DNA of 25,972 bases, taken from positions 1 to 25,972 of IMG/VR virus record IMGVR_UViG_3300030330_002475, one strand, 5' to 3'. How positions within the stretch are numbered: position 1 is the stretch's first letter; the number at the start of each line of letters is the position of its first letter. Source of the stretch: a virus. Taxonomy: Duplodnaviria > Caudoviricetes. Shown piece after piece: positions 1,132 to 23,418 of the stretch. Below the pieces are notes generated by a model. The model did not search any database, was not told where the DNA came from, and worked only from the letters and a program-made list of their open reading frames with translations. The translations under genes were made by a program, and so were the position numbers.

Positions 1132-1610
1132 TGGCAGCAACCTATGCAGCTTTGGCAGACCCTGTAACGGCAGTGGTAGATTTGTTAAGTAACAACTGGT
1201 CAGAGGTTGCAAGTGGTGTAGGTAACAATCTTACATCGGCAGGTGGCACATTAAAGATAGACGAATCTTGGGATATGGGTAAATATAATTTAAAAAATAA
1301 TGATGTTATAAGATGTTATGAAGTTTCTGGTGGACATGATATGTTAGGTATTGGTAAGGGAGTAGATAGACATACTGCATCTATCGCAATAGATATGTCC
1401 ACAGCAGTAAGCAGAGATAGGCTTAGACGCCTTTACACTGGGGTAGTACACCTCATTCACGCAGGACGCGCTAAAAGCGTTGGAACTGCACTTAATAGCG
1501 ATTATGCAAGCATTGTCTTGACTAGTCGCACAGACCTGTCGGATAGAAATCGCCGATGGTTTCGTTATGTTCTTAACTGTGATATCACAAGTTATGAGGT
1601 GGTAAATTAA
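1131..1610 (+). CDS. Putative tail terminator/tail completion protein
   Basis: About 160 aa, between adaptor and tail tube, with a C-terminal beta-strand pattern (RWFRYVLNCDI). TGATG coupling gives an ATG start at 1131. Confidence 0.5.
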   Translation: MAATYAALADPVTAVVDLLSNNWSEVASGVGNNLTSAGGTLKIDESWDMGKYNLKNNDVIRCYEVSGGHDMLGIGKGVDRHTASIAIDMSTAVSRDRLRRLYTGVVHLIHAGRAKSVGTALNSDYASIVLTSRTDLSDRNRRWFRYVLNCDITSYEVVN

Positions 1611-1611
1611 A

Positions 1612-2904: not shown

Positions 2905-2910
2905 GTAGGT

Positions 2911-3474
2911 ATGGTAAACGTAACAGGTCAGTTAGACGCCCCCCTAGTAGACCTAGGAGCGATGAGGCAAGAGTATTGGGAACGACAAGAAGTAAAACTC
3001 CCATCACTGTCTAAGTTACACAAACCAAAAGGTTGGCGTAGTTGGTTCTACAAAGAGCAGACGCCTGTTGTTATTTTACAAAGATTAAAGACGGAGGATT
3101 GGGAGCGTATAAACAACGACCATTATTATCTCAAAAAAGAACTTGTAGATGAGATGCCAAGGATAAGAGAGATTTCTAAAAAAATTGAAAACCTTGAGCC
3201 TATTACAGACAAAGAAAGAATATACATGGCAGATTTAGATACACGTACACGTCCTATAGTTTTAGCAATGCTTGCTGAAATGATTATAGAACCTGTTATG
3301 AAATATGAAGATGTTGTTCTTATGTTTGAGTTTTTAGATGATTATGATTCTAAAACGTTGTTAAGTATTGTAAATACTATGACTGCAGAGAGAGCTAGCG
3401 TAGCAATCGCCACAGGCCGTGAACGTACAGCAGAGTTAGAGCAATTAAGAAAAGATGTGGGGCTGGCTAAATAA
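2911..3474 (+). CDS. Putative tail assembly chaperone
   Basis: Charged helical protein between tube and tape measure genes. Call rests on synteny only. Confidence 0.5.
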   Translation: MVNVTGQLDAPLVDLGAMRQEYWERQEVKLPSLSKLHKPKGWRSWFYKEQTPVVILQRLKTEDWERINNDHYYLKKELVDEMPRIREISKKIENLEPITDKERIYMADLDTRTRPIVLAMLAEMIIEPVMKYEDVVLMFEFLDDYDSKTLLSIVNTMTAERASVAIATGRERTAELEQLRKDVGLAK

Positions 3475-4295
3475 TGGGCGGGCCAGGTAGCGGTAGAAGA
3501 GGTCCAACAGCTCAAAGTCCAACCACAGGTAGATTTGTAATTGAAGGTGCAGTTACTATGACTGCGGTAGGTGCGATTGATACGTTTGATATGCTTGGTA
3601 AAGAGCAGATGGAATTGCAAGCCGCAATAGAGGATACTAGCCGAGAGATGGAAGAACAAGCTAGGGTAAGTAGAGATTTACAACAAGCAATAGATGATAG
3701 TTCAGATTCTAATAAAGAATTACTTGATGCACAGACTAAACAATTAATTTTGATACAATCTCTTACTTCTGGAGTAAACCAGTTAACTGGTGGTTTATAC
3801 AAAGCAATCGCAGGTGCAGAAGCACTTGGAGCTGTAAATGAAGAGCAAGCTAGAAAACTTCAAGAGGTAGTTAGAGTTGCAGAATTGTTTACTGGTACAT
3901 TAGAAACTCTTTTGGCAGTCGAGCTTTTGCTTTTTGCAACTACTGGCAAAGGATTGGTTGCAAGGTTGGGTTTACAAGCTTTAGGATTTAAGGGAGTAGC
4001 TGCGGCTGCAGGTAGTGCGGCAGCCTCAGTCGGTTTATTTGTATTAGCTACAGCAGGTATTATAATATTGGCGACAGCGATAGTGATATTGTTTGTCAAA
4101 TTAAATGAAAAGTTTGACATAGTTGGCAAGTCAATAGGAGTATTGAACGCAGGAGTATTTACTTTGGTAGAATTATTTACACAAGCAAAAGATGCAGGCG
4201 ACGGAGTTGTGTCAATGTTAACTGACATAGGTGATGCAGTTCTTGATAATCCTCTGACAAAAACAATAGCTAAAGCAGGAGGTGCAATACTGTAA
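3474..4295 (+). CDS. Short tape measure protein
   Basis: N-terminal coiled coil followed by Ala/Gly-rich hydrophobic, TM-like segments. Canonical position; only 273 aa. Confidence 0.6.
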   Translation: MGGPGSGRRGPTAQSPTTGRFVIEGAVTMTAVGAIDTFDMLGKEQMELQAAIEDTSREMEEQARVSRDLQQAIDDSSDSNKELLDAQTKQLILIQSLTSGVNQLTGGLYKAIAGAEALGAVNEEQARKLQEVVRVAELFTGTLETLLAVELLLFATTGKGLVARLGLQALGFKGVAAAAGSAAASVGLFVLATAGIIILATAIVILFVKLNEKFDIVGKSIGVLNAGVFTLVELFTQAKDAGDGVVSMLTDIGDAVLDNPLTKTIAKAGGAIL

Positions 4296-7171
4296 TGGTA
4301 GTTGTCGACCTTACGATGCATCCTGTAAATGATGCTTCTTTGACGCCGAATCCTAATCCATTTAGTTTAGCAGGAGGTACACACAGCACGGCTAGAACGG
4401 CGGTTGTGTCAACTTTTAGTGGTGATACTACCTTAGGTGATGCAGGATTAAAAGTTGGGTTTGATGGCGGAGAATACAAAGCTATAATTTATGGTAGACT
4501 TCCAGAAAAGAAAGATGCTCTTGGTGAAACTGGCGATGCTAATGCAAACATAGTTGGTATGAAATTAAATTTTACTATAAATAATAATGACACAACAGCT
4601 TTACATTATGCGATTTCTGAGTTTGATGTTAAATTAGATGCAGGTATTTCAGGAACTAACGGTTATCAATTTACAGACATGGCAAGAATCTGTGTGGATG
4701 GAATTGACCACGATGCAACACCAACCGCAGTCACGCAAGGATGGTTTAAAGAGGTCGTTGCAAATAAATCACCTTTAAATATTACAGACGGAAATTTTGG
4801 AAGTATTGAAGATAATAAAGGCCCTATAAAAAGTGTTACGGGGGACTTTGGTTTTGGAGCAAATGGTATAATTGCTTTTTTTAGACCAGATACAGCCGAC
4901 GTAGACTTTTCAATAGATATGAAAGAATTTGTAAAAAGTAACTCATTGAATTGGGGAGATTACTTTTCCTTTATTATTCAGCGTATGGATAACGATGATA
5001 CGTCTACAGCAGGTCATATTACATTTAAACAAGTAGATTCTGGGACTACATCAAGAAAAACAATAAACGGTAATTCTTCAGGTTCAGCAGACCACTCCAC
5101 TGGTTTTGATATTGTAATTCAGTATGAAGATAAAGAACCAACAAGGCCAATAATAGATTTAAAAGCAGACACTGATATGATTAATGCTGTTGTAGATTTG
5201 AAAACAAAACCTACTGATATTGATATTAAAGAATTGCGTACCGTATGGAAGAAAGGGACTCCAGACACTGTTGATGGTGTTGAGGGAGTTACATATACTA
5301 CAGGCGGAGCTACCTCTGTTGCTGTTACGAATCTTGGTAAGGACTCATTAAAAGAAGCTGACGGGGACATACAATCAGATTACTTAGCCGACATGGGCAG
5401 TAATAATACATATCAACTTGTTACTTACGCTACGGACCAAAACAGTAATACTATGAGTAATCTTGTAACTCATTTTAGATTGCGGGCTGCAGGTTCAGTG
5501 ACATCTAATAATCCAACTATTGGTGAAGAGGTTACCTTGACGGTAGTAGCTTATTCTCATTCAAGTAGTGCAACACCTGCTGAGTTTACTAAGTTTGGTG
5601 TTAACTGGGACGGTAATGCTACAGCTTCACAAGATTCATTAGATGATTATACTATTGTAGAGCTTGACGAGCCTACGACAAGCACAACTCTAAAACATAC
5701 TTTTCACAAGGCAAACGCTGACACATATGTTAATATTTTTGTTGTTGATTCAAAAGGATTTAGAAGTGACTTCCAACGTGCACAGGATGTAGATGTACAA
5801 GAATCTAATCCTGTAGCAGTATTGAGAACAAGTAGAGACACTGCATTACGTGCAAAGTATGGTGATGACTTTTCTGTAATCAATCTGTCTTTGTCACATA
5901 GTTATCCAATCGGTAGTGATAGAGAGATACTTACTTACAAGTTTAAACACAATGCTGCAAGGACATCTCCATTGACAACCTTCCCTATGTCTAATGACAA
6001 TTCAGGATTCAAGGATGGCTCTCAGCAAATTAGATTAACTTGTCAAAATGTAAGTAATACTGGACCAGGCACACCTACAACGCTCAAAGTATTTGGTAGA
6101 GTATCTGTAATGGATGATGGAACTGATGTTGCAGATGACCAAAATACCTTTGACCATTATGAATATAAAGTAGTAGAGTTAGTTCCTAACAATACAAAAA
6201 ATACTGCAGGTGTAAATTCAAGCGAGTTTTTCAAATCTGTAGATTTTTGTGTCTTTTCTGAAATATCTACAAATGATGATGCTAATGCTGCAAGGTACAT
6301 ATTAGATGATATGGATGGTAATGTTATTAATGACAAACTTTGTGGCGGTAAAAACAATTACGCATGGGGAGGATTTAGAAATCTAACTACAGGTATTTCT
6401 ACTTTGGATATTAGTAACGCTGAAACATTGGATGCTGGCGTAAGTGAAGCTAAATTTATTGATAACGGTGCACGAGTTGGAGATACTATTTTTATTAACA
6501 CACCAGAAAACGCAAACAATAATGGAATTTATACTTTATCAGAAGTTACAACTACAAGGTTAAAAGTTAACGAAGATATAGACACAACAAACGCAGACGA
6601 TACTACAGCAGATATAATTACTGTTGCTGGCCCTACTTTGCCTATTGCATCTTATGAATCAGGACTTACACCTACTATAACTTGTCAGGTAGTATCACGC
6701 AAGGTTGGTGATTATACTACTGACGAATTGGACAACTCTTCAGAAGTAACCCAGACAATAACAATAGTAAGTGAAGTAATACATACATTAGATTTAGATA
6801 CAATGGTAGATAATGGTGACTTAGCAATTTTAAGTGCAAACCTAAGTAGAAGTGGAGGGTTGGCTTCACGTATGCCTTTAGGTTCTAGGGCTTATCCTAT
6901 TTCACCTACAAGAACATCTTTAGGGTTACCAACGATGGCGGTATCAGTTCGCACGTTAACACAGACAGGTTATCGAAAGATTTGGAATCTAATTGAAGGG
7001 GACAGATATGAATGGTCTACGATTGATTCAAAGAAAGTAGATTCTCCGTCCACAGCTTACAAGCAGTTGCGATTACGTTTGAGTAATGGTAACTTGAACA
7101 AAGACCCTGCCATGGCTAATCAGTATGTGGCATCATTAAATTTTATAGTAATCGGTGAGTTGGTATCATAG
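4295..7171 (+). CDS. Large tail-tip/adhesin protein with PKD/Ig-like domain, possibly Dit-like C-terminus
   Basis: 958 aa, D/T/S/N-rich beta protein. PKD-like motif FGVNWDG...TLKHTF...VNIFVVDSKG. Follows the TMP; SD GGAGGTG. Confidence 0.55.
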   Translation: MVVVDLTMHPVNDASLTPNPNPFSLAGGTHSTARTAVVSTFSGDTTLGDAGLKVGFDGGEYKAIIYGRLPEKKDALGETGDANANIVGMKLNFTINNNDTTALHYAISEFDVKLDAGISGTNGYQFTDMARICVDGIDHDATPTAVTQGWFKEVVANKSPLNITDGNFGSIEDNKGPIKSVTGDFGFGANGIIAFFRPDTADVDFSIDMKEFVKSNSLNWGDYFSFIIQRMDNDDTSTAGHITFKQVDSGTTSRKTINGNSSGSADHSTGFDIVIQYEDKEPTRPIIDLKADTDMINAVVDLKTKPTDIDIKELRTVWKKGTPDTVDGVEGVTYTTGGATSVAVTNLGKDSLKEADGDIQSDYLADMGSNNTYQLVTYATDQNSNTMSNLVTHFRLRAAGSVTSNNPTIGEEVTLTVVAYSHSSSATPAEFTKFGVNWDGNATASQDSLDDYTIVELDEPTTSTTLKHTFHKANADTYVNIFVVDSKGFRSDFQRAQDVDVQESNPVAVLRTSRDTALRAKYGDDFSVINLSLSHSYPIGSDREILTYKFKHNAARTSPLTTFPMSNDNSGFKDGSQQIRLTCQNVSNTGPGTPTTLKVFGRVSVMDDGTDVADDQNTFDHYEYKVVELVPNNTKNTAGVNSSEFFKSVDFCVFSEISTNDDANAARYILDDMDGNVINDKLCGGKNNYAWGGFRNLTTGISTLDISNAETLDAGVSEAKFIDNGARVGDTIFINTPENANNNGIYTLSEVTTTRLKVNEDIDTTNADDTTADIITVAGPTLPIASYESGLTPTITCQVVSRKVGDYTTDELDNSSEVTQTITIVSEVIHTLDLDTMVDNGDLAILSANLSRSGGLASRMPLGSRAYPISPTRTSLGLPTMAVSVRTLTQTGYRKIWNLIEGDRYEWSTIDSKKVDSPSTAYKQLRLRLSNGNLNKDPAMANQYVASLNFIVIGELVS

Positions 7172-8278
7172 ATGTCTGCCACAGACAGAGATGTTTTTCC
7201 TGAAACATTATCTTTTAATTTAACAATAGATGGCATTGTCTTTCCTAATGCCGTCAATGCAAGAGTCACACACACTTTCAATTCTGCTAGAGTGCTCACT
7301 GTGAATTTTATAGGTCAGGAGTCTCTTGATGTATGTAGGCTTGGTGCGGAAGTAGAGTTGTCTTGGGGTAGAGGTAACCTAAGCAATCTGGTGGATGACA
7401 AAAAGTTTATCGGCATAATTAAAAATGTATCGCCCAAACCAGAAGTATCTACATTTACGGCATTGGACTTTACCACATTGCTTGCAGAATCTCAGTTTGT
7501 AAAATTTAAACCTCAAGACTATATTGGTGAGGATTTGTATTTTGCCGCAGCCAAGGCTTGCAATTACAAAGGCATAGATGTTTCACGATTAACACGTGGT
7601 TCAGGTTTGATGATAACAAAGGATATGGATTTATTTGGTTGGAAAACTAGGAAAGAGTTTATTGATGCATGCTTTGCTGAAATGAAAGTATTGGTCAATG
7701 ACCAGTTTCATAAACCTAATACTATCAAGCAATGGCGTTATGCAATCAGGTCAGGTAAAGTGATGGATTTCTTTTTATCAGATGAATCAAATACAGTTAC
7801 CTCATTTCCTTATGTAGAAGTGTCCATAGAGGACGCGAATATTATTAATGGTGGGGTAGTATCCAAAATAGATTCAACGCGCCTTATCAACGCAATAACA
7901 GTAGTTAGTAGTGATGATGAAGATATAGCAGTGCAGTTAGAAGATTCAGGCAGTCAAAAAAGATATGGAGTAGTTAGTAATTTTATATCATATAAATCAA
8001 AAGATAAGAATGAATTAGAAGATGTCGCTTATAAAGTATTGAATAGATTTAAAGAACCTACAGTTAGTTACACGTTAAGTTTGTCTAACCTTGATAATTT
8101 AGATATAGGTGATATTGTAGAAATCAATATGCCTTCTTTACCTAAAGCGACAAGGGAAGTAGTAATAGGATATGAGGTAACTTATGGAGATACATTACAA
8201 ACTAGTTATGTTGTTGGTCAACCAAGAGTAACTCCTAAAGAGTTCTTAGAATTATTAAAAGAACCAACAGATAGATAG
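7172..8278 (+). CDS. Baseplate hub/Tal-like tail protein (Mu gp44/T4 gp27 type fold)
   Basis: 368 aa with hub-like motifs (INAITV, DSGSQKRYGV, LDIGDIVEI). Last gene of the tail operon. Confidence 0.6.
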   Translation: MSATDRDVFPETLSFNLTIDGIVFPNAVNARVTHTFNSARVLTVNFIGQESLDVCRLGAEVELSWGRGNLSNLVDDKKFIGIIKNVSPKPEVSTFTALDFTTLLAESQFVKFKPQDYIGEDLYFAAAKACNYKGIDVSRLTRGSGLMITKDMDLFGWKTRKEFIDACFAEMKVLVNDQFHKPNTIKQWRYAIRSGKVMDFFLSDESNTVTSFPYVEVSIEDANIINGGVVSKIDSTRLINAITVVSSDDEDIAVQLEDSGSQKRYGVVSNFISYKSKDKNELEDVAYKVLNRFKEPTVSYTLSLSNLDNLDIGDIVEINMPSLPKATREVVIGYEVTYGDTLQTSYVVGQPRVTPKEFLELLKEPTDR

Positions 8279-8416
8279 ACACAGACACCTTCATTTCCAC
8301 TGGAGAATATAATATATATCTGGCAATATTTCTGAATATGATAATAAGCCGTCGAATCATCTGTGTTTGTTTTATAGATAAATAAAAAGTTCCAGTGGAA
8401 ACAAAGGTGTGTGTGT
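8279..8416. other. Archaeal oriC-like replication origin: inverted ORB pair flanking AT-rich DUE
   Basis: 26-bp inverted repeat at 8279-8304 and 8391-8416 (23/26 match). The boxes read CTCCAGTGGAAATGAAGG on the - strand and GTTCCAGTGGAAACAAAGG on the + strand, matching the Orc1/Cdc6 ORB consensus TTCCAGTGGAAAC-AAAGG. The 86-bp spacer is about 76% AT by hand count. Intergenic. Confidence 0.8.
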
Positions 8417-8561
8417 GTTAGAAAAGATATGGAGTGTTCAATGTAGCCCAACCGTTAGTTTCTCAAATTTTTGTTGAAAGTCCACGAGAAACTTAAGCTC
8501 GTCCGTAGTTCTCCTACGACTCTATTCTCCATAAGTGCCTATAAGTCCGTTCCTTAAAAGG

Positions 8562-8792
8562 TTAAGCTATACGTTTACCTAGGTGACTTACTTTGATTTC
8601 AATAGCCTTAGAATGGCCTACAACATATATCATACTATCAGTATGGGTGTATCCTTTCCTACCATATCCTTGTCTAGGCCTTTCCCATATGCCTAGTCTC
8701 TTGTGGTGATTAGGATGGTAGTCTTCTTTCATTTGGCTTAGCCATCTATTTGCTACAGCTAATGAATTGACCTGTACCATTCTAGTGGCCAT
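8562..8792 (-). CDS. Small basic hypothetical protein
   Basis: Third gene of a minus-strand operon. ATG at 8792 overlaps the end of the upstream gene. Confidence 0.6.
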   Translation of the reverse strand: MATRMVQVNSLAVANRWLSQMKEDYHPNHHKRLGIWERPRQGYGRKGYTHTDSMIYVVGHSKAIEIKVSHLGKRIA

Positions 8793-9009
8793 CTTTACCA
8801 TCCAGTTCATCTTTGACTGCTCTTAGTGCTTGAGTGAGGAATATCTTTGCACGCCTCATTTCTTTAGCATGCATGTCCATACTTTTCTCTAGGTCCATAG
8901 CTACTTCATCTGGTAAAGTATAGACAGTTTCTATATCAGCTCTAGCAGACTCGAAGTTCTTTGCGGTAGGAGTAGTTGCGCCAAGCTTGATTGTAACGGT
9001 TTTAATCAT
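8782..9009 (-). CDS. Hypothetical protein (beta-hairpin plus helix)
   Basis: ATGA overlap with the upstream stop (start 9009). K-x-G...NFESARADIE pattern resembles small phage proteins. Confidence 0.7.
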   Translation of the reverse strand: MIKTVTIKLGATTPTAKNFESARADIETVYTLPDEVAMDLEKSMDMHAKEMRRAKIFLTQALRAVKDELDGKDGH

Positions 9010-9248
9010 TTGCTTCTCCACTCTTTTTCTATTTCAATCTGTCTTTTTACTTCTAGTATTTGTGTGGTATACTTATTGTATGTTTGTATAGTTTTATACC
9101 TTTCATAGTAGTTAGATTGTTTCTTTATGTAATGAGTATAATGTTCTTCTAGTTCATCAAGACTCATGTTGTTTCGCTCTTCGATTGAGAGTATAGTAAA
9201 CTTGTTAGGTTTATCTTGCTTTTTTTGTGTCTTCTTGTTGTTTGACAT
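9006..9248 (-). CDS. Small coiled-coil hypothetical protein
   Basis: Leaderless ATG about 22-28 nt downstream of a TTATATA box. Confidence 0.7.
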   Translation of the reverse strand: MSNNKKTQKKQDKPNKFTILSIEERNNMSLDELEEHYTHYIKKQSNYYERYKTIQTYNKYTTQILEVKRQIEIEKEWRSK

Positions 9249-9269
9249 ACTTTAAGACATACAATATCA

Positions 9270-9277
9270 TATATAAG
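9270..9277 (-). promoter_or_regulatory. Archaeal TATA box (CTTATATA) for leaderless minus-strand operon
   Basis: TTATATA 22-28 nt upstream of ATG 9248. aagtATG start context is shared with other promoters in the window. Confidence 0.7.
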
Positions 9278-9311
9278 GCTATGGGAGGGTCGTTTTTGGC
9301 ACTTTTCCTAT

Positions 9312-9321
9312 GGGTTAAATA
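9312..9321 (+). promoter_or_regulatory. GGGTTAAATA TATA-like motif, copy 1
   Basis: Identical 10-mer at 11296-11305 and 11657-11666; all three copies are intergenic. Confidence 0.5.
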
Positions 9322-9405
9322 CATGGCCTGCGTACCCAAAAATGAGTACCTACTCACTTTTTCACGTCTACTCATGATTAAGTACATAAATATATCTATA
9401 GAAAA

Positions 9406-9415
9406 TTATATATAG
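9406..9415 (+). promoter_or_regulatory. TATA box (TTATATATAG) of early operon
   Basis: 22-31 nt upstream of ATG 9437, preceded by purine-rich GAAAA (BRE-like). Confidence 0.7.
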
Positions 9416-9436
9416 CATGCTCTCCAATGTAGGTGT

Positions 9437-9703
9437 ATGTCAGAAAGTCAAAAGACAGATATAAGCAAGAAACAAGCCCACGAATTGTTAGACGCATTCG
9501 TAGAGCAATTAAGAGAATATGTACTCTATGAGGATATACATATGTATTGCGACGAACCAATACTAGAAACTGATAGTTATGGCGATGAGCTAACAGTTAC
9601 TATATGTAAGGACGAATATAATATTGATTATATAGATTTAGATATGTACATTAGAGAAGCTTTACCTGAGTACTTTAAACAAGAATCAAGTGAGGAAGAA
9701 TAA
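9437..9703 (+). CDS. Small very acidic early protein
   Basis: 88 aa, D/E/Y-rich. First gene after a TATA box; TAATG coupling to the next gene. Confidence 0.8.
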   Translation: MSESQKTDISKKQAHELLDAFVEQLREYVLYEDIHMYCDEPILETDSYGDELTVTICKDEYNIDYIDLDMYIREALPEYFKQESSEEE

Positions 9704-9951
9704 TGTCTTATAATGGATGGTCAAATAGGGAAACTTGGTTAGTTAATTTGTGGCATAATCCTGAATCTATAGAAGATGTTGATTACATTAAAGATATGTT
9801 GGAATCTGAATATTATGATATAGATGGTTTTTGGGGTGACATGATTAATTTTCATATTATAGACTGGACTCAGTTAAGACAACACTTTCAGACTGAAGCT
9901 GAGATTGAAGCTGAATTTGAAAATATGTTAAGAGCAATAAAAGGTGAATAA
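9703..9951 (+). CDS. YNGW-x-N-x-ETW family small viral protein
   Basis: N-terminal MSYNGWSNRETWLVNLW motif, which I recognise as recurrent in phage early regions. Function unknown. Confidence 0.75.
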   Translation: MSYNGWSNRETWLVNLWHNPESIEDVDYIKDMLESEYYDIDGFWGDMINFHIIDWTQLRQHFQTEAEIEAEFENMLRAIKGE

Positions 9952-10137
9952 ATGAAATATCTAACGGGAAAAGATTATAGTGATTCATGTGTTAAATGTC
10001 AAAAAGCTATAGATGATGCTCATGAACTAATTGTTATGGGTTTTGTATCTGAAGAATATATAGAAGACCCCGAAGGTCCTTCAATGTTAGCTTATGATAA
10101 AAGGTGGACGTGTGTCGATGATTGTGAGGTCGATTAA
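9952..10137 (+). CDS. Small Cys-containing (possible Zn-binding) protein
   Basis: CxxC and CxxxC motifs; SD AGGTGA. Confidence 0.7.
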   Translation: MKYLTGKDYSDSCVKCQKAIDDAHELIVMGFVSEEYIEDPEGPSMLAYDKRWTCVDDCEVD

Positions 10138-10352
10138 TGAATATAAATTATTTTGATAAATTACACGAATTATCAGGCCGAGCAATTCAGAATGAAGAAT
10201 GTAGTCCTGATACATACCTATTAGCATATGCGCTTTACTCATTAGTAGACGCGACAAGTCAAATAGAACATGCAATAGATGACACTACAAATATTCTAAA
10301 AAAGATAGAAGGCCATTTACATCATATGAATTTGGAAAGGTGGAATAAATGA
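10137..10352 (+). CDS. Small helical hypothetical protein
   Basis: TAATG coupling; SD GAGGT. Confidence 0.7.
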   Translation: MNINYFDKLHELSGRAIQNEECSPDTYLLAYALYSLVDATSQIEHAIDDTTNILKKIEGHLHHMNLERWNK

Positions 10353-10498
10353 AACATTCTAACAAGTTAAAAGCTAATTTGAAAGAGCACCAAACAGATT
10401 TTATTAAAATGCAATTTAACATATTAAAAGATAAAATAAATTATTGTCATTCAAGACTAGAACATTTAGAAGAATATATTTTAGGGGATGACGAATGA
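10349..10498 (+). CDS. 49-aa coiled-coil protein (not in ORF track)
   Basis: MKHSNKLKANLKEHQTDFIKMQFNILKDKINYCHSRLEHLEEYILGDDE. ATGA overlaps at both ends. Confidence 0.7.
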   Translation: MKHSNKLKANLKEHQTDFIKMQFNILKDKINYCHSRLEHLEEYILGDDE

Positions 10499-10569
10499 AA
10501 ATTTGTAAAGACTGTAGTAAAAGATTTATTCACCATGTTTATTTTTATCTTCATAAATGTGAGGTTTAA
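10495..10569 (+). CDS. 24-aa zinc-finger microprotein (not in ORF track)
   Basis: MKICKDCSKRFIHHVYFYLHKCEV: CxxC-x3-F...HxC pattern. ATGA overlap. Confidence 0.6.
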   Translation: MKICKDCSKRFIHHVYFYLHKCEV

Positions 10570-10570
10570 A

Positions 10571-10810
10571 ATGGGTGGTTTAATGAGTTGGGAAAGTGCT
10601 AAACGGGAATTAAAAAAGCTCTACAAAAATCCCGAAAAAGAGTTATTAAGCATAAATGATGATAGTAATTCTTATATACTAGAGTATAGATGTACTGATA
10701 TGTCAAAACAACAGACAACTAAAGAAATAGGTTATTGTGGTTGCAGTTTTTGCGAGTACAATAAAGCCAACGGTAGAAAATACAACCTACACATGAAGGT
10801 GTTAAAATGA
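10571..10810 (+). CDS. Small Cys-containing protein
   Basis: Start reassigned to ATG 10571 (SD GAGGT; 10583 is an alternative). CxCxxC motif. Confidence 0.65.
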   Translation: MGGLMSWESAKRELKKLYKNPEKELLSINDDSNSYILEYRCTDMSKQQTTKEIGYCGCSFCEYNKANGRKYNLHMKVLK

Positions 10811-11076
10811 GTATATCAGAACATGACGAAACTGGTGAGAATGTAAAACGTCATCCCGACGCGGAGCCCCGTGTAGTAGTCCCTAAAGAAATGCTAAACG
10901 GAACTATCGCGACAAGAATAGAATTAATAAGACGTAGTATAATATTCTTAACTAATGATATAAAGACAAGAGAAGATAGTAGTGAAGCTTGGGAAGTATT
11001 ACAAAAAGCCTATAGTTATCTAAGTGCAAAAGATACCATGATAAAGTATTGTGAGGATAATAATCATGTGGTGTGA
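10807..11076 (+). CDS. Hypothetical protein
   Basis: ATGA overlap; SD AGGTG; 89 aa. Confidence 0.7.
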   Translation: MSISEHDETGENVKRHPDAEPRVVVPKEMLNGTIATRIELIRRSIIFLTNDIKTREDSSEAWEVLQKAYSYLSAKDTMIKYCEDNNHVV

Positions 11077-11149
11077 ATGGTGTCATGTAGAGACTAGTCA
11101 AAAGACAGTAGCATTCTGTGATAAATGCTGGGAGAATGCAAACTTTTAG
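11066..11149 (+). CDS. 27-aa C4 zinc-finger microprotein (not in ORF track)
   Basis: MWCEWCHVETSQKTVAFCDKCWENANF: CxxC...CxxC. SD GAGGA upstream. Confidence 0.65.
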   Translation: MWCEWCHVETSQKTVAFCDKCWENANF

Positions 11150-11221
11150 AATAAGAATAAATCGTTTCGGTATAGATAAGCCCTGTTAGACCTCGCACAC
11201 GCGCGTACCATAACGGGGCCC

Positions 11222-11235
11222 CTATATATACTTAT
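11222..11235 (-). promoter_or_regulatory. ATAAGTATATATAG promoter motif with no downstream ORF
   Basis: Exact 14-mer shared with the promoters at 11615-11633 (-) and 12998-13016 (+). Confidence 0.55.
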
Positions 11236-11306
11236 CTATGCTACCCATAATTGGGTGGGGCTACTCAAAAGCGAGTAGAATATAGAAAATGCTGAGGGTT
11301 AAATAA

Positions 11307-11378
11307 TCATCCTCTTATGGCCTTTCGGCCTTTTATCACCTCCTTAGGTAGTTCCCTTGTGATTCCTTCCCCGCGCAT
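11307..11378 (-). CDS. Possible 23-aa basic micropeptide
   Basis: MRGEGITRELPKEVIKGRKAIRG, TGATG-coupled to the 11378-11593 gene. Confidence 0.35.
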   Translation of the reverse strand: MRGEGITRELPKEVIKGRKAIRG

Positions 11379-11593
11379 CAGTCCATGTCCTCCGTAGGAA
11401 TTTTCCCGTATAGGTACTTTTTGTTTTCGATGCAGTCTTTTAGATGTTCGTAAACTCTTTCTACTGAGTAGTTGTAGTTCAACAGTACATCTATTTTCCA
11501 GCGCATTATAGTTCCACTATGTCCTTTCCTATCTAGGAACTGAATCATATCAACTAAGATATCTTCAATTCCATTTAGTCTGTTGTTTTCCAT
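11378..11593 (-). CDS. Hypothetical protein, leaderless
   Basis: 71 aa. ATG lies 21 nt after the CAGGCATAAGTATATATAG promoter motif. Confidence 0.75.
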   Translation of the reverse strand: MENNRLNGIEDILVDMIQFLDRKGHSGTIMRWKIDVLLNYNYSVERVYEHLKDCIENKKYLYGKIPTEDMD

Positions 11594-11614
11594 GCTATAC
11601 CCAGATATAGCACC

Positions 11615-11633
11615 CTATATATACTTATGCCTG
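11615..11633 (-). promoter_or_regulatory. Early promoter CAGGCATAAGTATATATAG
   Basis: Identical 19-mer at 12998-13016 on the + strand. Both copies sit 20-21 nt before an ATG. Confidence 0.8.
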
Positions 11634-11761
11634 GCACTAGAATAGCCAAACTGCAAGGGTTAAATAACGTGTCTTTAGTCGACAAATGAAGCCTTCCAAG
11701 CCTGTTAGCCCCATAGACTACCCTATATAATATATTACTCTCTATGCATTTACAAGCATAC

Positions 11762-11769
11762 TTTTATAA
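11762..11769 (+). promoter_or_regulatory. TATA box (TTTTATAA)
   Basis: 22-29 nt upstream of aagtATG 11791. Confidence 0.65.
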
Positions 11770-11790
11770 GCACAGCCCTATTGCTTAAGT

Positions 11791-12009
11791 ATGGACAACA
11801 ACCGAACCATACAAGAAATAGAAAGCCAGATTGTCGAATTACACAGGCAAGCATTAAACAGAATGAACGACAGATATGACGAGTTTGACTCTATAGACGA
11901 CGACTACCCAGACGGACCTATAGGTGACCCTGAGAGCCTGACAAACGAAGCTATGGTTAGAGCTTATAGTAATGCGTTAAACATCATAAGAAAGCTAAAG
12001 GTGGACTAA
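11791..12009 (+). CDS. Small acidic helical protein
   Basis: 72 aa, leaderless start. Confidence 0.75.
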   Translation: MDNNRTIQEIESQIVELHRQALNRMNDRYDEFDSIDDDYPDGPIGDPESLTNEAMVRAYSNALNIIRKLKVD

Positions 12010-12011
12010 AA

Positions 12012-12173
12012 ATGATGACAAGAAAACACTTTGTATATATTGCTAAGATACTTAGTAAACATAATGCTAGTAGAGAGTTAATACATGACTTCGAGATTAT
12101 GTGTGTAAGTGATAATCTAAACTTTGATTCTGAGAAGTTTAGAGAAGCAGCAGGGTGGGAAGATGCAAACTAA
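12012..12173 (+). CDS. MTRK-x-(F/Y)...DN-x-x-FD-x-x-(K/R)F family small viral protein (not in ORF track)
   Basis: MMTRKHFVYIAKILSKH...SDNLNFDSEKFREAAG, a motif I recognise as recurrent in phage early regions. SD GGTGG. Confidence 0.75.
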   Translation: MMTRKHFVYIAKILSKHNASRELIHDFEIMCVSDNLNFDSEKFREAAGWEDAN

Positions 12174-12234
12174 ATTTTTAACAGTAAAAGAGTATAATGC
12201 TTTTGTCATGTTAGGATATGAGGAGAATCTCTAA
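12163..12234 (+). CDS. 23-aa micropeptide
   Basis: MQTKFLTVKEYNAFVMLGYEENL. GGGTGG SD; TAATG coupling to the next gene. Confidence 0.45.
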   Translation: MQTKFLTVKEYNAFVMLGYEENL

Positions 12235-12878
12235 TGGCCCGTAAAAATTGGACAGATAAAGAGACTAAGATATTGAGAGAGTTATTTCACAATAATATAA
12301 AAATGGAGACAATCATGAAAATACTAGGTAGAAGTAAAGCCTCAATAAATGCGAGATGTAGAAAGTTAAAAATCAAAAGAAATAAAGTAGTAGATAGTAA
12401 ATTGCCTTTTACAGATAAAACAAATAGAAAGCATTTTGCTAATCAAAGCAATTTAGTAATAGGTGGAATAAGTGAATGGTCAGTATTCATTAGTTTAGAG
12501 CAAAGAGGCTGGGGCGTCTTTAAACCCATTATAGAAGGTAATAGAACCGATTGTATCATAAAACATTATGAGACAGGTAAAACCTATAAGATACAAATCA
12601 AAACAGGTACATACTCACAAAGATATGATTGCTTTCACACTCAACTAAAAACTAGCGATGCATGGAAAGCAGAAAAATATAATAAAGAAGATTTACACTT
12701 TTTTATTGTTAGGCTTGATAAAATGAATGTGCATTATATTATACCTTTTGAAGATTCGTTAAGAATGCCTACAAGGCCAACACTAACACCACATAGAAGA
12801 AAACAAGTTAAGAGGTCAAGATATAATCATTTAGATACGGAACAATACAAAGATAAATGGGAGTTGATTAAAGCTTAA
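12234..12878 (+). CDS. HTH (Myb/GcrA-like) plus PD-(D/E)XK endonuclease, homing-endonuclease-like
   Basis: N-terminal WTDKETKIL...LGRSKASINAR. Nuclease core GGISE...GWGVFKP...RTDCII...KIQIKT resembles I-Ssp6803I-type enzymes. Confidence 0.75.
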   Translation: MARKNWTDKETKILRELFHNNIKMETIMKILGRSKASINARCRKLKIKRNKVVDSKLPFTDKTNRKHFANQSNLVIGGISEWSVFISLEQRGWGVFKPIIEGNRTDCIIKHYETGKTYKIQIKTGTYSQRYDCFHTQLKTSDAWKAEKYNKEDLHFFIVRLDKMNVHYIIPFEDSLRMPTRPTLTPHRRKQVKRSRYNHLDTEQYKDKWELIKA

Positions 12879-12997
12879 ACGGTTGGTATCCATGAAGCTG
12901 GGCAACTTCTAAAACTGCCTAGTATGATATATATTTATATAATCATCCACTCATACAACAGCATATGCCTATATAAGCTTATGCATAGCACTACTAA

Positions 12998-13016
12998 CAG
13001 GCATAAGTATATATAG
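12998..13016 (+). promoter_or_regulatory. Early promoter CAGGCATAAGTATATATAG
   Basis: Identical to 11615-11633 (-). 20 nt before ATG 13037. Confidence 0.8.
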
Positions 13017-13036
13017 CAATACATATTTAGAGCTAT

Positions 13037-13180
13037 ATGGAACCATACGAAGTGGAATCATTTATCGCCGAGCTAGACGCAAAAGTGTCTGAATTATTGA
13101 CTGATAAGGAATTACTCCTTGAGGCAGTAACAGAAGGTATCGAGGTCATGAGAGACCTAAGAGACCAGCTCGAAGGATAA
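13037..13180 (+). CDS. 47-aa acidic helical protein (not in ORF track)
   Basis: MEPYEVESFIAELDAKVSELLTDKELLLEAVTEGIEVMRDLRDQLEG, with its own promoter and terminator. Confidence 0.75.
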   Translation: MEPYEVESFIAELDAKVSELLTDKELLLEAVTEGIEVMRDLRDQLEG

Positions 13181-13198
13181 ACAGCTCGGAAAACGTCC

Positions 13199-13227
13199 GC
13201 CAGAACGAAATCTGGCACTATTTTTTT
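13199..13227 (+). terminator. Hairpin plus T7 tract terminator
   Basis: GCCAGA-ACGAAA-TCTGGC followed by TTTTTTT (13221-13227). Confidence 0.6.
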
Positions 13228-13302
13228 ACCCCCCCCAAACCATGTAATAGGGTACCCCGTTTTCTACAGGGGGTAGGTAGTCTATAAATTTTTTATATTT
13301 TT
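13228..13302. other. Candidate packaging signal/genome end
   Basis: C8 run, GGGTACCC palindrome, TACCCC...GGGGTA inverted pair and T-tracts, upstream of the TerS operon and at a composition switch. Confidence 0.4.
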
Positions 13303-13310
13303 CTACCAAC

Positions 13311-13321
13311 AAGTATATAAG
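13311..13321 (+). promoter_or_regulatory. TATA box (AAGTATATAAG) of packaging operon
   Basis: TATATAA 23-29 nt upstream of ATG 13343. Confidence 0.65.
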
Positions 13322-13342
13322 GAGGTACATATTGTGTGATAT

Positions 13343-13753
13343 ATGACAAACAAGTCAAGTGAAGCTACCAGGTACATGATACAGGTAGGAACGAATAGAT
13401 TTAGGCGAGATACATGGGAAGCCATGAAGGACATATGTGCAATAGAGGGTACACGATTGGCAGATGAGATATGGGCAGCTTTGGACATGCATGTGAAGAC
13501 TTATGCAATAAGCCAGAAGAATGCTTTGGTAGGTGATGGCAGGGTAATGATGGATAGGCCGATGGAGACAGCTCCAGAGGGTCACGGCAATATTTTTGAC
13601 AATGTTGTGGACAAGGTAGTTAAAGAGGCGCACGATGATGTGATAGAGGAGGTAGTGAATGAAGAAGAAGACACAGGACGTACCGACCACGGAAGAGTGG
13701 CTAGCAGCAATATGTTTGGAAGTTACAAACCATCTAAAGACAGAAAATGGTAA
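13343..13753 (+). CDS. Possible ribbon-helix-helix DNA-binding protein with acidic tail
   Basis: Strand-helix-helix pattern RYMIQV...DTWEAMKDICAIEGTRLADEIWAALDMHV. Confidence 0.5.
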   Translation: MTNKSSEATRYMIQVGTNRFRRDTWEAMKDICAIEGTRLADEIWAALDMHVKTYAISQKNALVGDGRVMMDRPMETAPEGHGNIFDNVVDKVVKEAHDDVIEEVVNEEEDTGRTDHGRVASSNMFGSYKPSKDRKW

Positions 13754-14250
13754 AGGAAGGTAAGAGTTATACAACAGAGGACAAGCAGGAGGCGATGGGT
13801 TTGTACTTACGCGGGTATGGCAACACAGACATAGCTAGAAAGATGAACAAGCGTTACAAGTATAACTTAACAGCTAAGACGATAAGTCGTTGGGCTGCTA
13901 AGGGTGGTTGGGATGAGTATCGCAATCAGGTTGAGATAGATTTGATAGAGCATACGAAGAAGACGGTTGTTGGAGATATGGCAAAAAACATGCATGAGTT
14001 AGAGGAGGCTCGTCAGACGTTTATGAGTAATTTGCGTGATGGCAGGGCAGAGATACGCGGGCATGAGTTTGTTAAGATGACAGAGGTTTTGGGTAAGTTA
14101 CAGGATTTTGAGCGTGACAAGGAGGAGATGATAGGTCGGATAAATGGTTGCATACAGGGTGCATTGAAGGATGTGGACATGGACAAGCGGTTGAGTCAGA
14201 AGTTTTTGCGAGCTTACATTGCTAGGTTGCGAGGAGATAATGATGAGTAA
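13747..14250 (+). CDS. terS: Terminase small subunit
   Basis: N-terminal HTH YTTEDKQEAMGLYLRG...DIARK...TISRWAAKGGW followed by helical oligomerisation segments. Upstream of TerL in the same operon. Confidence 0.65.
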   Translation: MVKEGKSYTTEDKQEAMGLYLRGYGNTDIARKMNKRYKYNLTAKTISRWAAKGGWDEYRNQVEIDLIEHTKKTVVGDMAKNMHELEEARQTFMSNLRDGRAEIRGHEFVKMTEVLGKLQDFERDKEEMIGRINGCIQGALKDVDMDKRLSQKFLRAYIARLRGDNDE

Positions 14251-14858: not shown

Positions 14859-14995
14859 GAAAGCGTCATGTTGCTAGTGAGGTACATCATATGACGATGT
14901 GTGGTCATGAGACAACTTATCAGGAGTATGAGAAGATGAAGAAGCGAGATTTGAAGCATGTGAATTGCAAGAAGTGTTTGGAGCTGTTAAAATGA
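14855..14995 (+). CDS. H/C zinc-binding small protein (H..TxCG..VxCxxC)
   Basis: Start 14855 by ATGA overlap. Motif shared with 15496-15660. Confidence 0.7.
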   Translation: MRKRHVASEVHHMTMCGHETTYQEYEKMKKRDLKHVNCKKCLELLK

Positions 14996-15321
14996 AGGAG
15001 TGGTTTGACACGTTGGAGAGTACTAAGAAGATGGTTGTAAATTATCTTAGAGATTATCCACACACGCGTGACAGCGATAAAGAGCTGTTTTTCATGATAC
15101 TGAGGGATTACTATCGCGCAATACCTGTAGAGCAAAGAAGCCAGCGAGAAGAGAGTTTTTTGAGTGATTTGTATTTGCTTGTCAAGTATGCGCCAGATAA
15201 AGGTACAGTAAGTCGCATGCGTAGAAGGATACAGCATGATGACGGAGTTTTTTTGCCTACGCCTGAGGTAGCAGAGATACGCGACAGTATGGAGCAGAAG
15301 TTCAAGGAGTGGAGCAAATGA
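14992..15321 (+). CDS. Hypothetical protein (P-x-TRDSD...RxRRxIQ motif)
   Basis: ATGA overlap at 14992. YPHTRDSDKEL and TVSRMRRRIQ look like a winged-helix-like phage protein. Confidence 0.7.
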   Translation: MKEWFDTLESTKKMVVNYLRDYPHTRDSDKELFFMILRDYYRAIPVEQRSQREESFLSDLYLLVKYAPDKGTVSRMRRRIQHDDGVFLPTPEVAEIRDSMEQKFKEWSK

Positions 15322-16500: not shown

Positions 16501-16616
16501 TTAAGGATGGTAAGGTCATTGATGAGACAGAGGATTTACATTATATGCATGAGTTGCTTGTAATTAATGACAAAGATGTTAAAGAGATAGTTGTAACTGT
16601 GGCAAAACACAAGTGA
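16479..16616 (+). CDS. 45-aa hypothetical protein (not in ORF track)
   Basis: GTG start, MVTIIRLIKDGKVIDETEDLHY... TGATG coupling to TerL. Confidence 0.55.
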   Translation: MVTIIRLIKDGKVIDETEDLHYMHELLVINDKDVKEIVVTVAKHK

Positions 16617-18082
16617 TGGATAATAGCAAATACATTTCGCAGGCAATCGCAGGTGCGTTGGAGATAATGAATGACCAGCCATTGACATTGAATGAGTTTA
16701 TAGATGAGGTGATGCGAGATTATATGGAGCAGGAGCCTGGGACTTATGTTCCTTTAGGTGATATGCATGCTCAGTGGGAAGAAAATTTTAACAAAGGTGA
16801 GTTTGCGTCTATAATTTGTGCAAGGGGTCACTTGAAAACGACATGGGGTTTGTGTGTGTTGGCATATTATATGCATAAGCAGCCAAACTTCAGGGCTTTG
16901 TATATTTCTGCAACGTTAGAACAGGCATGGGACAAGCTTGAACAGTTTGAGGAACTTTGTAAACGGTCATGGCGTCTTAGCAACTATCTTGAAAAGGGTG
17001 ACGACAGGAAGGTTACGATACGAAAGGGCGCAAAGCGGTTTAACAATGGTAGTCGCGTACATGGTGCAAGTATAGGAAAGGCACTTGAGGGTCCTCACGT
17101 TCACATGATTATTCTGGACGACGTTTTGCAGGAGTTTCCAAATCTTACTGATGAGAAGGTTATTCATTATGTACAGAGAGTTGTGATGCCGATGCGTCTT
17201 CCAGAGTCTAAAATGTTATTGGTAGGTACTCAAAAACGGGTAGGTGACATAACGGACTGGGTATCTGAGAGTTCAGAGTGGAATGTGGTTAGACATCCTG
17301 CACTTTTGGAGGACGGAAGTCCTAGATGGCCTGAATATTGGAATCAAGAGCGGTTGGACAAAGAAAAGGAGACAATGGGAAGTCGGGCTTTTGAGTCTGA
17401 GTATATGTTAAATCCGTTGGACCCAGAGTCTGCGGTTATACCGTATGAGGTATTACAGCGTTGTTTGGATGAAAAGTTGGACATGGGTCTTCCAGAGTAC
17501 GATGAAGATATAAGCGTCGTTATGGGTGTTGACTTGGCTGTGGGTATGAACAGTCAAAATGATGAGACAAGCTACGTTCTTGTGGCTTATAATAAACGTA
17601 CGGAGCAACGTAGGCTTTTGTATAGTTGGACAGGCAAGGTAATGGCGCAGGGTTCGGGTTGGTTAGAGACTCAGGTGTTAAAGATAAGAGAACTTGCGAA
17701 ACGTTTTAATCCAGATACGATAATGATAGAATCGAATGGGTATCAGAGGTTGGTTGTCCACAGTGCGTCGGATTTGGCGGGCTTACCAGTCGAAGGGCAC
17801 AACACGGGCAGAGAAAAGCACAGCCATGACGTGGGCATACCTGGGTTGGCCTTGGAGTTTGAGAAGGAGAGATACCAGATTCCGTGGCAAAAAGAAATAA
17901 GGGAAGCAAGTAGGCCAGGTCCTAGAAAATTAACGGATGGTTTGAGTCGTTTGGTTTACGGTAAAAACGGTAGGTTAGAGGGTCACACTCCAGATGCGGT
18001 GATGGCTTTGTGGATGTGTGAGTTAGCAATCAAAGGTATGAACAAAAAGGGTCTTGCTTTTGTTGGTTGGGATTACATATAG
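16616..18082 (+). CDS. terL: Terminase large subunit
   Basis: Walker A ARGHLKTT, Walker B MIILDD, coupling motif VGT, RNase H nuclease GVDLA / IESNGYQ / HTPDAVMAL. Confidence 0.95.
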   Translation: MDNSKYISQAIAGALEIMNDQPLTLNEFIDEVMRDYMEQEPGTYVPLGDMHAQWEENFNKGEFASIICARGHLKTTWGLCVLAYYMHKQPNFRALYISATLEQAWDKLEQFEELCKRSWRLSNYLEKGDDRKVTIRKGAKRFNNGSRVHGASIGKALEGPHVHMIILDDVLQEFPNLTDEKVIHYVQRVVMPMRLPESKMLLVGTQKRVGDITDWVSESSEWNVVRHPALLEDGSPRWPEYWNQERLDKEKETMGSRAFESEYMLNPLDPESAVIPYEVLQRCLDEKLDMGLPEYDEDISVVMGVDLAVGMNSQNDETSYVLVAYNKRTEQRRLLYSWTGKVMAQGSGWLETQVLKIRELAKRFNPDTIMIESNGYQRLVVHSASDLAGLPVEGHNTGREKHSHDVGIPGLALEFEKERYQIPWQKEIREASRPGPRKLTDGLSRLVYGKNGRLEGHTPDAVMALWMCELAIKGMNKKGLAFVGWDYI

Positions 18083-18087
18083 AAACA

Positions 18088-18095
18088 TTTATATA
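18088..18095 (+). promoter_or_regulatory. TATA box (TTTATATA) upstream of RHH-portal block
   Basis: Sits in the short gap after the TerL stop. TTATATAC matches the late promoter core. Confidence 0.55.
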
Positions 18096-18126
18096 CATAA
18101 AGCATATGCATGAAATCCAACCATTT

Positions 18127-18276
18127 ATGAAAAAGCGAACACGGTTGGAAATTTACGGAATAAGTAACGATACTAAAGAAAGTTTGAAAGAGATTGCTAA
18201 GGCAGAGAATGTTCCGACGGGTGTTTTGGTAGAACCTGTGCTTAGAAAGTACGTCAAGGAGTACAATGGCAGATAA
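18127..18276 (+). CDS. Ribbon-helix-helix DNA-binding protein
   Basis: RLEIYGISNDTKESLKEIAKAENVPTGVLVEPVLRKYV. Start reassigned to ATG 18127. Confidence 0.7.
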   Translation: MKKRTRLEIYGISNDTKESLKEIAKAENVPTGVLVEPVLRKYVKEYNGR

Positions 18277-18658
18277 GAGAACTAGGTATAAGATTCCTAA
18301 AGGTGTTAAGAAAGAAGCGATGGATGGTCGTGATTTACGTCGTATGCATGGGTATGGCGGCGGTAAGGTGACAAAGATGGTAAATCGTAAGTTACGTATG
18401 CAGAAAGATATAGGTTATGATACAGCAGTAAAGATAGATACATATTACAGAAGACATGAGAAGGTAGACCCGCCCGCTAAGGGTTTTGGTGACAGACGTA
18501 ATCCGAGTAAGGGTTATGTGATGTGGAAGCAGATGGGTGGTGATGCAGGTCACAGGTGGAGTAAGTCATTGAAGAAGAGGTTAGACTTGCTTCAGAAAAC
18601 AGAAAGGCTTAATAACATAATGAAGACATTGGAGGATATACATGGCATGGTACGATAG
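18266..18658 (+). CDS. Basic head-associated protein (RHE...PSxG...W..GGDAG..W family)
   Basis: I recognise this motif set from phage head modules, where it is often fused to prohead protease or morphogenesis proteins. Function unknown. Confidence 0.65.
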   Translation: MADKRTRYKIPKGVKKEAMDGRDLRRMHGYGGGKVTKMVNRKLRMQKDIGYDTAVKIDTYYRRHEKVDPPAKGFGDRRNPSKGYVMWKQMGGDAGHRWSKSLKKRLDLLQKTERLNNIMKTLEDIHGMVR

Positions 18659-20042: not shown

Positions 20043-20275
20043 GTGCATGTAAAAAGTGTAGAGCAGGTCCGATGTCAGTACATATATTGAGTAATGGTTT
20101 TTGTCAAGCATGTACAAGTGAGTTGTCTTGGAAGCAAGGAGAAAGAGTAGCACGACAACAGGCAGCAAGGGCGCAACGCATGAAGATGTTTAAGAAAGCA
20201 GAAAAGTACATAGACAAAAAATGGAAAGACAAGTATGGTGATGATTCTGTTGAGGCTGTACGTGAGTACAAGTAA
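20039..20275 (+). CDS. Zinc-finger plus basic helix protein
   Basis: CKKC...CQAC; coupled at both ends. Confidence 0.7.
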   Translation: MSACKKCRAGPMSVHILSNGFCQACTSELSWKQGERVARQQAARAQRMKMFKKAEKYIDKKWKDKYGDDSVEAVREYK

Positions 20276-20757: not shown

Positions 20758-20786
20758 TTTCCGGAAAGTTATACTTACTTATATAC
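20753..20786 (+). promoter_or_regulatory. Late promoter copy 1: TTTCCGGAAA palindrome, N7, TTACTTATATAC
   Basis: Same architecture at 22853-22886. TATA 21-27 nt before GTG 20806. Confidence 0.8.
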
Positions 20787-20805
20787 ACATATCGGATGTT
20801 AGGCT

Positions 20806-22857: not shown

Positions 22858-22886
22858 TTTCCGGAAATATTGAGTTACTTATATAC
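22853..22886 (+). promoter_or_regulatory. Late promoter copy 2 driving scaffold-MCP
   Basis: AGTAGTTTCCGGAAA N7 TTACTTATATAC, 20 nt before ATG 22907. Confidence 0.8.
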
Positions 22887-22906
22887 CCTTTTGTACATAA
22901 ACAAGT

Positions 22907-23416: not shown

Positions 23417-23418
23417 GT

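Follow-up and report, generated by a model that had tools for sequence, protein, structure and literature searches.

Here we describe a predicted replication origin in IMG/VR record IMGVR_UViG_3300030330_002475, which comes from a virus of the Caudoviricetes; the entire record, 25,972 bases, was analysed and is called the window below. An inverted repeat at 8279-8416 contains two boxes of the origin recognition box (ORB) type, forming a pair (8281-8414) just left of position 8417. Its sequence and layout match a predicted chromosomal origin (oriC) of Marine Group III (MGIII) archaea, and we consider it likely that the virus carries a cis-acting copy of this oriC, at which host Orc1/Cdc6 and MCM start viral replication. 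The missing replication genes are by themselves ordinary; the finding is a lineage-matched, movable copy of an origin.

The window virus is a tailed archaeal virus. The Caudoviricetes hallmarks of large terminase, portal and HK97-type capsid protein were found with Pfam and PHROGs, and among named relatives haloviruses come closest, at 25-30% identity, with ∼30% between the major capsid protein and those of HCTV-5/HVTV-1 and 26% between the terminase and that of phiH. Half or more of its sequence words were recovered from 8 of the 20 marine metagenome runs listed, in 2 studies. The record lacks terminal repeats and ends on both sides inside an open reading frame (ORF), which marks it as an incomplete contig; from the gap bridged by a close relative, G007, we estimate a whole genome of ∼34-36 kb. 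AT content is 0.61, and GC skew in the window tracks gene direction and marks no origin.

Scored with a matrix built from 51 MGIII (predicted host) sites, each box of the repeat reaches 40.8 bits, where the next site in the window has 8.5 and 30 shuffles gave 7.2 at most; the 13-nt ORB core alone is within chance, two matches being reached in 12 of 100 shuffles of the window. The spacer between the boxes is among the least stable 0.8% of 86-nt segments, and holds at ATAAGCCGTCGAA the only site in the window with at most one mismatch to a 13-nt spacer motif, ATAAGCCGYCGWA, as well as a 15-nt exact match to host locus L229. Two features of archaeal oriC, the ORB consensus and opposed ORBs around an AT-rich element, are present; an adjacent orc1/cdc6 gene, which is common and not universal, is absent from the virus.

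The same arrangement recurs across a viral family. An exact 20-mer scan of viral contigs returned 83 loci, 72 of them with an inverted partner, and 71 of these 72 pairs adjoin genes of the window virus's family. By hand counts over partly redundant loci, the cassette follows the last tail gene in 24 cases, precedes the putative protease gene in 37 and lies near the small terminase gene in 10, and each of the five records searched whole holds one ORB pair. Among 73 viral cassettes (window included) there are 61 distinct spacers, and their alignment shows three motifs and one distance kept where the DNA between the motifs diverges; the spacer motif occurs in 71 of the 73 at ≤3 mismatches, 39-44 nt from one box. 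This selective conservation argues against the inverted repeat being a transcription terminator, an RNA hairpin or a neutral relic of captured host DNA, a reading that we hold to be very improbable. It would suit the window, where the cassette sits between two convergent gene runs, but cassettes also occur between co-directional genes and at three different positions, and Rfam gave no match at gathering scores in the window or in L337, a stretch of the relative G318. The host-type ORB element, proposed as an origin in the first-pass annotation, which had been made from the letters of the window, is on the evidence of matrix scores, viral loci and motif geometry real, conserved and lineage-matched.

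The lineage was indicated by the same 20-mer in cellular DNA, where it has 37 loci among the GTDB species genomes. Six adjoin an Orc1/Cdc6 gene and so support the reading of the boxes as ORBs; they come from Woesearchaeota, Nanoarchaeota, Nitrososphaerales and Thorarchaeota. Twelve represent a single intergenic locus, kept in synteny next to a metallo-beta-lactamase-fold gene, all within one order (four titled MGIII and one titled Thalassarchaeaceae); and the remaining 19 are mostly single matches in unrelated genomes. At ≤2 mismatches, 30 of the 45 genomes of the order holding MGIII have a match, with 2 matches for the reversed control. Exact matches are absent from the 256 other genomes of the class, which we infer to be Poseidoniales; of the 75 sites with one mismatch there, 67 (counted by hand) end in GGGGT; an inverted partner was found for 3 of 20 such sites examined, at 142-146 nt, and the spacer motif for none. 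At the MGIII locus (L218-L244), 26 of the 27 loci show a pair of opposed boxes separated by 61-68 nt, a spacer tightly kept near 64 nt, together with a 13-nt motif. This is the spacer motif of the viruses, present in 22 of the 26 host loci at 37-43 nt from one box and, in 14 of the 22, at 39 nt. Viral cassette and MGIII locus are alike in three lineage-specific ways: the GGTGT tail of the box (GGTGT/GGTCT), the 13-nt motif and the 39-nt box-to-motif distance. They differ in the distance from the motif to the other box, which is 32-128 nt in viruses and 10-14 nt in hosts, and in the boxes, the viral ones being nearer the consensus: two exact boxes make up 62 of 72 viral pairs but none of the 26 host pairs, a comparison that is fair for the second arm only since the viral loci were picked by one exact arm. 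The MGIII locus is predicted to be a working oriC, and ORB type together with spacer motif points to MGIII, and not to Marine Group II (MGII), as the probable host of the window virus. All five MGIII genomes checked encode Orc1/Cdc6, as a single gene away from the ORB locus, and no provirus or co-binned viral copy was found in the host genomes searched.

From this architecture and from established archaeal origin biology, a course of replication can be proposed. The injected viral genome would circularise, host Orc1/Cdc6 would bind the two inverted boxes, and host MCM would be loaded between them, so that the host replisome copies the viral DNA; at a later stage concatemers would be supplied to the terminase. 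An opposed arrangement of ORBs is believed to set the orientation of Orc1 so that MCM is loaded in the space between (PMC6742236; here and below, sources other than PMC13108676 are cited for parts of their text). The spacer motif would bind a host factor, as ucm does in Sulfolobus, where activity of oriC1 needs both flanking ORBs and this motif, and where the ucm-binding protein (UBP) interacts with MCM (PMC12141716). The cassette resembles Sulfolobus oriC1 (ORB3, a DNA unwinding element with ucm, and ORB2; PMC12141716, PMC6742236, PMC5333045) in its opposed ORBs, AT-rich spacer and third motif within, and differs from it in its viral location, in a genome without orc1/cdc6, in having a G+C-rich spacer motif where ucm is AT-rich, and in being a predicted origin. 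More speculatively, near-perfect boxes might help the virus to out-compete the chromosome for Orc1, and the longer viral spacer might relax host control. Helical phasing, considered as an account of the longer spacers, fits the window (+22 nt) and was rejected because it does not fit the commonest class (+34/35 nt).

The virus appears to bring no replication gene of its own. As the first-pass annotation had described, 8417-13340 holds about 5 kb of small ORFs with one exception; all are ≤91 aa save that at 12234-12878 (214 aa). Replication families are absent from the ORFs of the window in Pfam, PHROGs and NCBIfam: no polymerase, primase, helicase, clamp, Orc1, Rep or integrase family was matched by 46 ORFs (Pfam E≤0.1; PHROGs E≤0.01), and no replication family by the 28 compared with NCBIfam. 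Two Pfam matches, DNApol_Exo (E 0.055, 20039-20275) and CDC45 (E 0.075, in the acidic ORF 22907-23416), fall far under the curated cut-offs, the sole Walker-A-like string of the window sits in the capsid protein, and sequence searches of the PDB with four proteins of unassigned function came back empty.

A replication gene might of course lie in the unseen part of the genome, or the contig be a chimera or a provirus flank; we attach almost no weight to either. The contig is incomplete, with ∼8-10 kb of this exact genome unread, but relatives cover that part. A terminase search of viral contigs gave 112 related stretches, 80 of which were kept, and five long records (G001-G005, 31-37 kb) were gene-mapped; in G003 and in G004 the two ends of the record overlap within one gene, so that each takes in the full gene circle, the full-circle relatives being 34.6-37.3 kb. 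In G007, whose early genes are 68-98% identical to those of the window, a single contig bridges the gap with, in order, the rest of the ORF starting at 25388, a 1327-aa LamG protein, ORFs of 113, 162, 274, 127 and 120 aa and then the gene at position 2. Profile scans of relatives took in ORFs above 55-60 aa, and BLAST served to map the new ORFs of G006 and G008. The 129 ORFs of G001-G005 without a homologue in the window include no replication family in Pfam, nor do the 60 of them also compared with PHROGs; their matches are to LamG, to an MscS-type channel domain, to a pair of amidoligase and amidotransferase and, in the 113-aa ORF, to a Recombinase DNA-binding domain that stands alone, without a catalytic domain. 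Among 53 ORFs of G312-G316 there were methylase, PAPS-reductase-like, peptidase and tail-component matches only, and no replication family. Polymerase, helicase, Rep and orc1 genes, any of which the first-pass annotation had named as fatal to its view, were thus sought in the relatives' counterpart of the unseen part and not found. Its expectation that this part is structural holds for the LamG virion protein and fails for five small conserved genes that stand there in relatives (an MscS-like membrane protein, the recombinase-type DNA-binding domain and three of unassigned function). As to a chimera, independent contigs match the window over 1090-11360 with 17 differences and over 9307-14003 with 4, which shows that tail operon, origin and early region belong together, and cellular genes are absent at both contig ends.

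The small-gene module of the unseen part (L082:13088-15522 and equivalents, with the MscS-like 274-aa ORF and ORFs of 162, 127, 120 and 256 aa) is very conserved, often 85-100% identical where capsids are 45-60% identical, and is possibly a lysis or membrane module; a query with the viral MscS-like protein found no host homologue in 45 genomes. Amidoligase and glutamine amidotransferase genes occupy a variable region of G004 (L087:1720-5226) and G005 (L089:14169-17626).

Several observations weigh against the cassette as the virus's origin, among them those on a sister group. A capsid-alignment search brought in five more records, G317-G321, with terminases 56-58% identical to that of the window; G318 is complete with terminal repeats, and G319 and G320 are 97-100% complete by CheckV. 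These records share the structural genes of the family and have no ORB pair and no spacer motif, and 64 of their ORFs include no replication family, the matches being methylases, ParB-like domains, a QueC/D/E set and, below the cut-off, one zinc finger. The family can therefore replicate without ORBs, and its loss of replication genes does not depend on the cassette, which weakens the earlier suggestion that ORB pairs explain the absence of replication genes. Other points on this side are the box-to-box distance of 85-182 nt in viruses as against 61-68 nt in 26 host loci; the presence in the window of DNA less stable than the spacer; a predicted MGIII origin that is not beside orc1, with no ORB adjoining orc1; a family capsid gene absent from the MGIII genomes (one of 401 class genomes has a partial match, outside the order); and the many small unassigned ORFs, which could include a replication helper and which make replication wholly on host machinery, as put forward in the first-pass annotation, a conjecture.

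These results bear on the view that the cassette is a decoy, binding host Orc1 and the factor that reads the motif and thereby stalling replication of the chromosome or sending the host a signal; the virus itself would then be copied without ORBs, by the same route as the sister group, for example recombination-dependent replication. Relatives lacking both ORBs and replication genes are what such a view expects, as are boxes exact more often than those of the host, as for a competitor, and a viral box spacing that departs from the tight host value. A sponge, however, needs copies and not geometry, and what is found is one pair per genome, always inverted, with a third motif kept at the host's distance from one box; we regard the decoy as unlikely. 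The portal tree requires two changes in ORB presence and places the ORB-bearing G314 among ORB-less records; the terminase tree requires one, weakly supported. The place of the ORB pair of G314 is taken in the ORB-less group by a 191-aa protein that folds as a helix pair plus coiled coil. It was considered as an alternative initiator and rejected, its fold having no PDB match and being regulator-like, and on its modelled structure it is probably a regulator; a conserved AT-rich palindrome upstream of its gene may be a promoter or an origin.

The ORB-less records show some further features. A single degenerate MGIII-type ORB of 23.3 bits lies inside a tail gene of G320 (L341:6476-6501). A conserved gene-free element of ∼300 nt follows the terminase gene in G318 (L337:10850-11130) and G319 (L338:2900-3250), with a TATA-like box and a GNRA-capped hairpin; it is absent from G317 and G321 and is a candidate structured RNA. 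In G320, QueC, radical-SAM and QueD-like genes stand with a ParB-like gene (L340:11832-15359), a set that we take to suggest 7-deazaguanine DNA modification.

It is also conceivable, and in our judgement quite improbable, that the cassette is an origin needing a small viral helper, so that replication is host-initiated and virus-licensed. Candidates would be the ORF at 8782-9021, the putative regulator at 13343-13753 and the 113-aa ORF. The last (L082:15184-15522) is found in those ORB-bearing records whose sequence extends over its place (G001-G007, G312, G313 and G315) and is absent from G317-G320, but this correlation is based on few independent lineages; the ORF at 8782-9021 is the cassette's neighbour in the window and a conserved gene of the family, but no fold or family ties any of the candidates to replication. 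Since the spacer motif is found in the host as well, its reader should be a host protein, which counts against a viral helper.

Several known systems invite comparison with the window family. The first-pass annotation had cited some Magrovirus-related genomes as lacking a replication module; this was mistaken, as each of the 26 magrovirus genomes carries genes for DNA polymerase, clamp, primase and MCM (PMC5434244), and clades encoding polymerase have been described too (PMC5332604). Like the magroviruses (Magrovirales), the window virus is a marine head-tail virus with a halovirus-like capsid protein, but magroviruses have genomes of 65-100 kb, a near-complete replisome and MGII hosts (PMC5434244), whereas the window family has ∼35-37 kb and no replisome. 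Membership of the Magrovirales was rejected on these grounds, the window and the full-circle relatives having no family B DNA polymerase module and a size outside that range. What stands of the earlier interpretation is the tailed archaeal virus, a counterpart of the unseen part free of replication genes and a host-type ORB; the magrovirus link does not stand, and the ORB as explanation is weakened.

Viruses that lean on the host replisome are known in other groups. The Adrikavirales are without DNA polymerase, ‘possibly using host replisome’ (PMC13108676; PMC11706807), and one of their families, the Satyavativiridae, consists likewise of marine viruses, of Thermoplasmatota; these have about 87 kb, in contrast to the ∼35-37 kb of the window family, and are linked to Poseidoniales, and no origin mechanism is given for them in the texts cited. 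The Satyavativiridae type genome is not among the matches listed for the capsid protein and terminase of the window. Small haloarchaeal viruses known as DHTVs encode one replisome-recruiting protein (10.1101/2025.02.15.638363), and classical ORBs are reported to be lacking in Thermococcales viruses (PMC12934983) and in AGV1 (10.1101/2021.04.21.440749), as far as the parts cited go. The window virus shares with DHTVs and Thermococcales viruses a reliance on the host replisome, but these encode PCNA, Orc1, MCM or RPA, whereas its own predicted recruiter is DNA alone. ORB-like sequences of the pleolipovirus HHPV4 were predicted by software in one genome (PMC5867852), unlike the window cassette with its host-matched architecture and conservation test. 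In the parts cited, PMC5628999, PMC10160649, PMC9789665, PMC8651126 and PMC5333045 describe neither the window family nor a viral oriC copy. A literature search with most subscription papers (including Zhou et al. 2023) outside it found no virus using a host-type oriC without an initiator of its own, and no MGIII virus family.

The features of the window are listed in Table 1.

Table 1. Coordinates of the origin cassette and of the genes in the 25,972-base window.
Feature	Position	Strand	Basis or remark
C-terminal half of a highly conserved 256-aa protein, function unassigned, cut by contig start	2-400	+	74-98% identity in relatives
Putative neck and tail operon, stops 3 nt before left ORB	400-8278	+	weak tail matches on 7172-8278; gene order kept in relatives
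Left ORB, core 8285-8304, MGIII-type GGTGT tail	8281-8306	-	40.8 bits, host-only matrix
AT-rich spacer, 86 nt, candidate unwinding element	8305-8390	.	AT 0.76
13-nt spacer motif ATAAGCCGTCGAA, 39 nt from left ORB	8344-8356	+	common to MGIII origins
Right ORB, core 8391-8410	8389-8414	+	40.8 bits; inverted relative to left box
Three small leftward ORFs, including 8782-9021	8562-9248	-	ORF list
Variable early region, about ten ORFs of 49-91 aa, mainly + strand, no replication family	9437-12173	.	Pfam, PHROGs, NCBIfam
Helix-turn-helix plus PD-(D/E)XK endonuclease, 214 aa, homing-endonuclease-like	12234-12878	+	Pfam PDDEXK_5 E 2e-10; PDB 2ost E 0.009
Putative regulator, small terminase subunit-like, zinc-finger and two nuclease-like ORFs, all ≤170 aa	13343-16616	+	partly by eye
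Packaging and head genes	16613-24591	+	PHROGs, Pfam
Large terminase	16613-18082	+	PHROGs, Pfam
Portal	18642-20042	+	PHROGs, Pfam
Putative protease	20806-22857	+	by eye
Major capsid protein	23419-24591	+	PHROGs, Pfam
Virion-protein-like ORF, cut by contig end	25388-25972	+	437-1024 aa in relatives

The ORF at 8782-9021 is a family-wide core gene of unassigned function, modelled by AlphaFold (pLDDT 86) as a beta-hairpin plus helix; its fold found nothing at E≤0.001 in BFVD, and the best match of a PDB-wide search (Z 5.5) was uninformative. The 256-aa protein cut by the contig start has no match in Pfam, NCBIfam or PDB, and the endonuclease at 12234-12878 no homologue in the gene maps of the mapped relatives. 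Further along, the ribbon-helix-helix call on the putative regulator and both nuclease-like calls were made by eye, and a structure-atlas search with the ORF at 14965-15321 gave only unnamed viral clusters. At the right end, no stop codon interrupts the frame starting at 25388 for at least 354 aa in locus L260, which is 100% identical. The extra domains of the putative protease gene vary, with 332 to 764 aa among relatives, and in G314 this gene is broken up into several short ORFs; the capsid gene is strongly mosaic, with 44% to 97% identity among relatives whose terminases are 94% identical. TATA-like 26-nt elements, repeated in both orientations at 11221-11246, 11614-11640 and 12968-13016, are probably early promoters.

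More broadly, we think the chances about even that the window belongs to a widespread, undescribed family of small MGIII viruses that are natural minichromosomes, carrying a movable, sharpened copy of the host oriC with a host-specific accessory motif and no initiator, helicase or polymerase. In the parts of the descriptions cited above, small archaeal viruses bring one or more proteins of their own to enlist the host replisome; recruitment by DNA alone would, if true, be a distinct strategy. The ORB-less sister group offers a natural comparison with the ORB-bearing members. It becomes testable whether Orc1 and MCM fire on the viral template and what reads the 13-nt motif, which bears on the existence of UBP analogues in other archaea, a question raised in PMC12141716. 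Host assignment from origin sequence likewise becomes testable, leading here to MGIII, an uncultured lineage. If the proposal is true, the host could be read from the viral origin, and the motif would point to an origin-binding factor of MGIII that is the analogue of the UBP of Sulfolobus.

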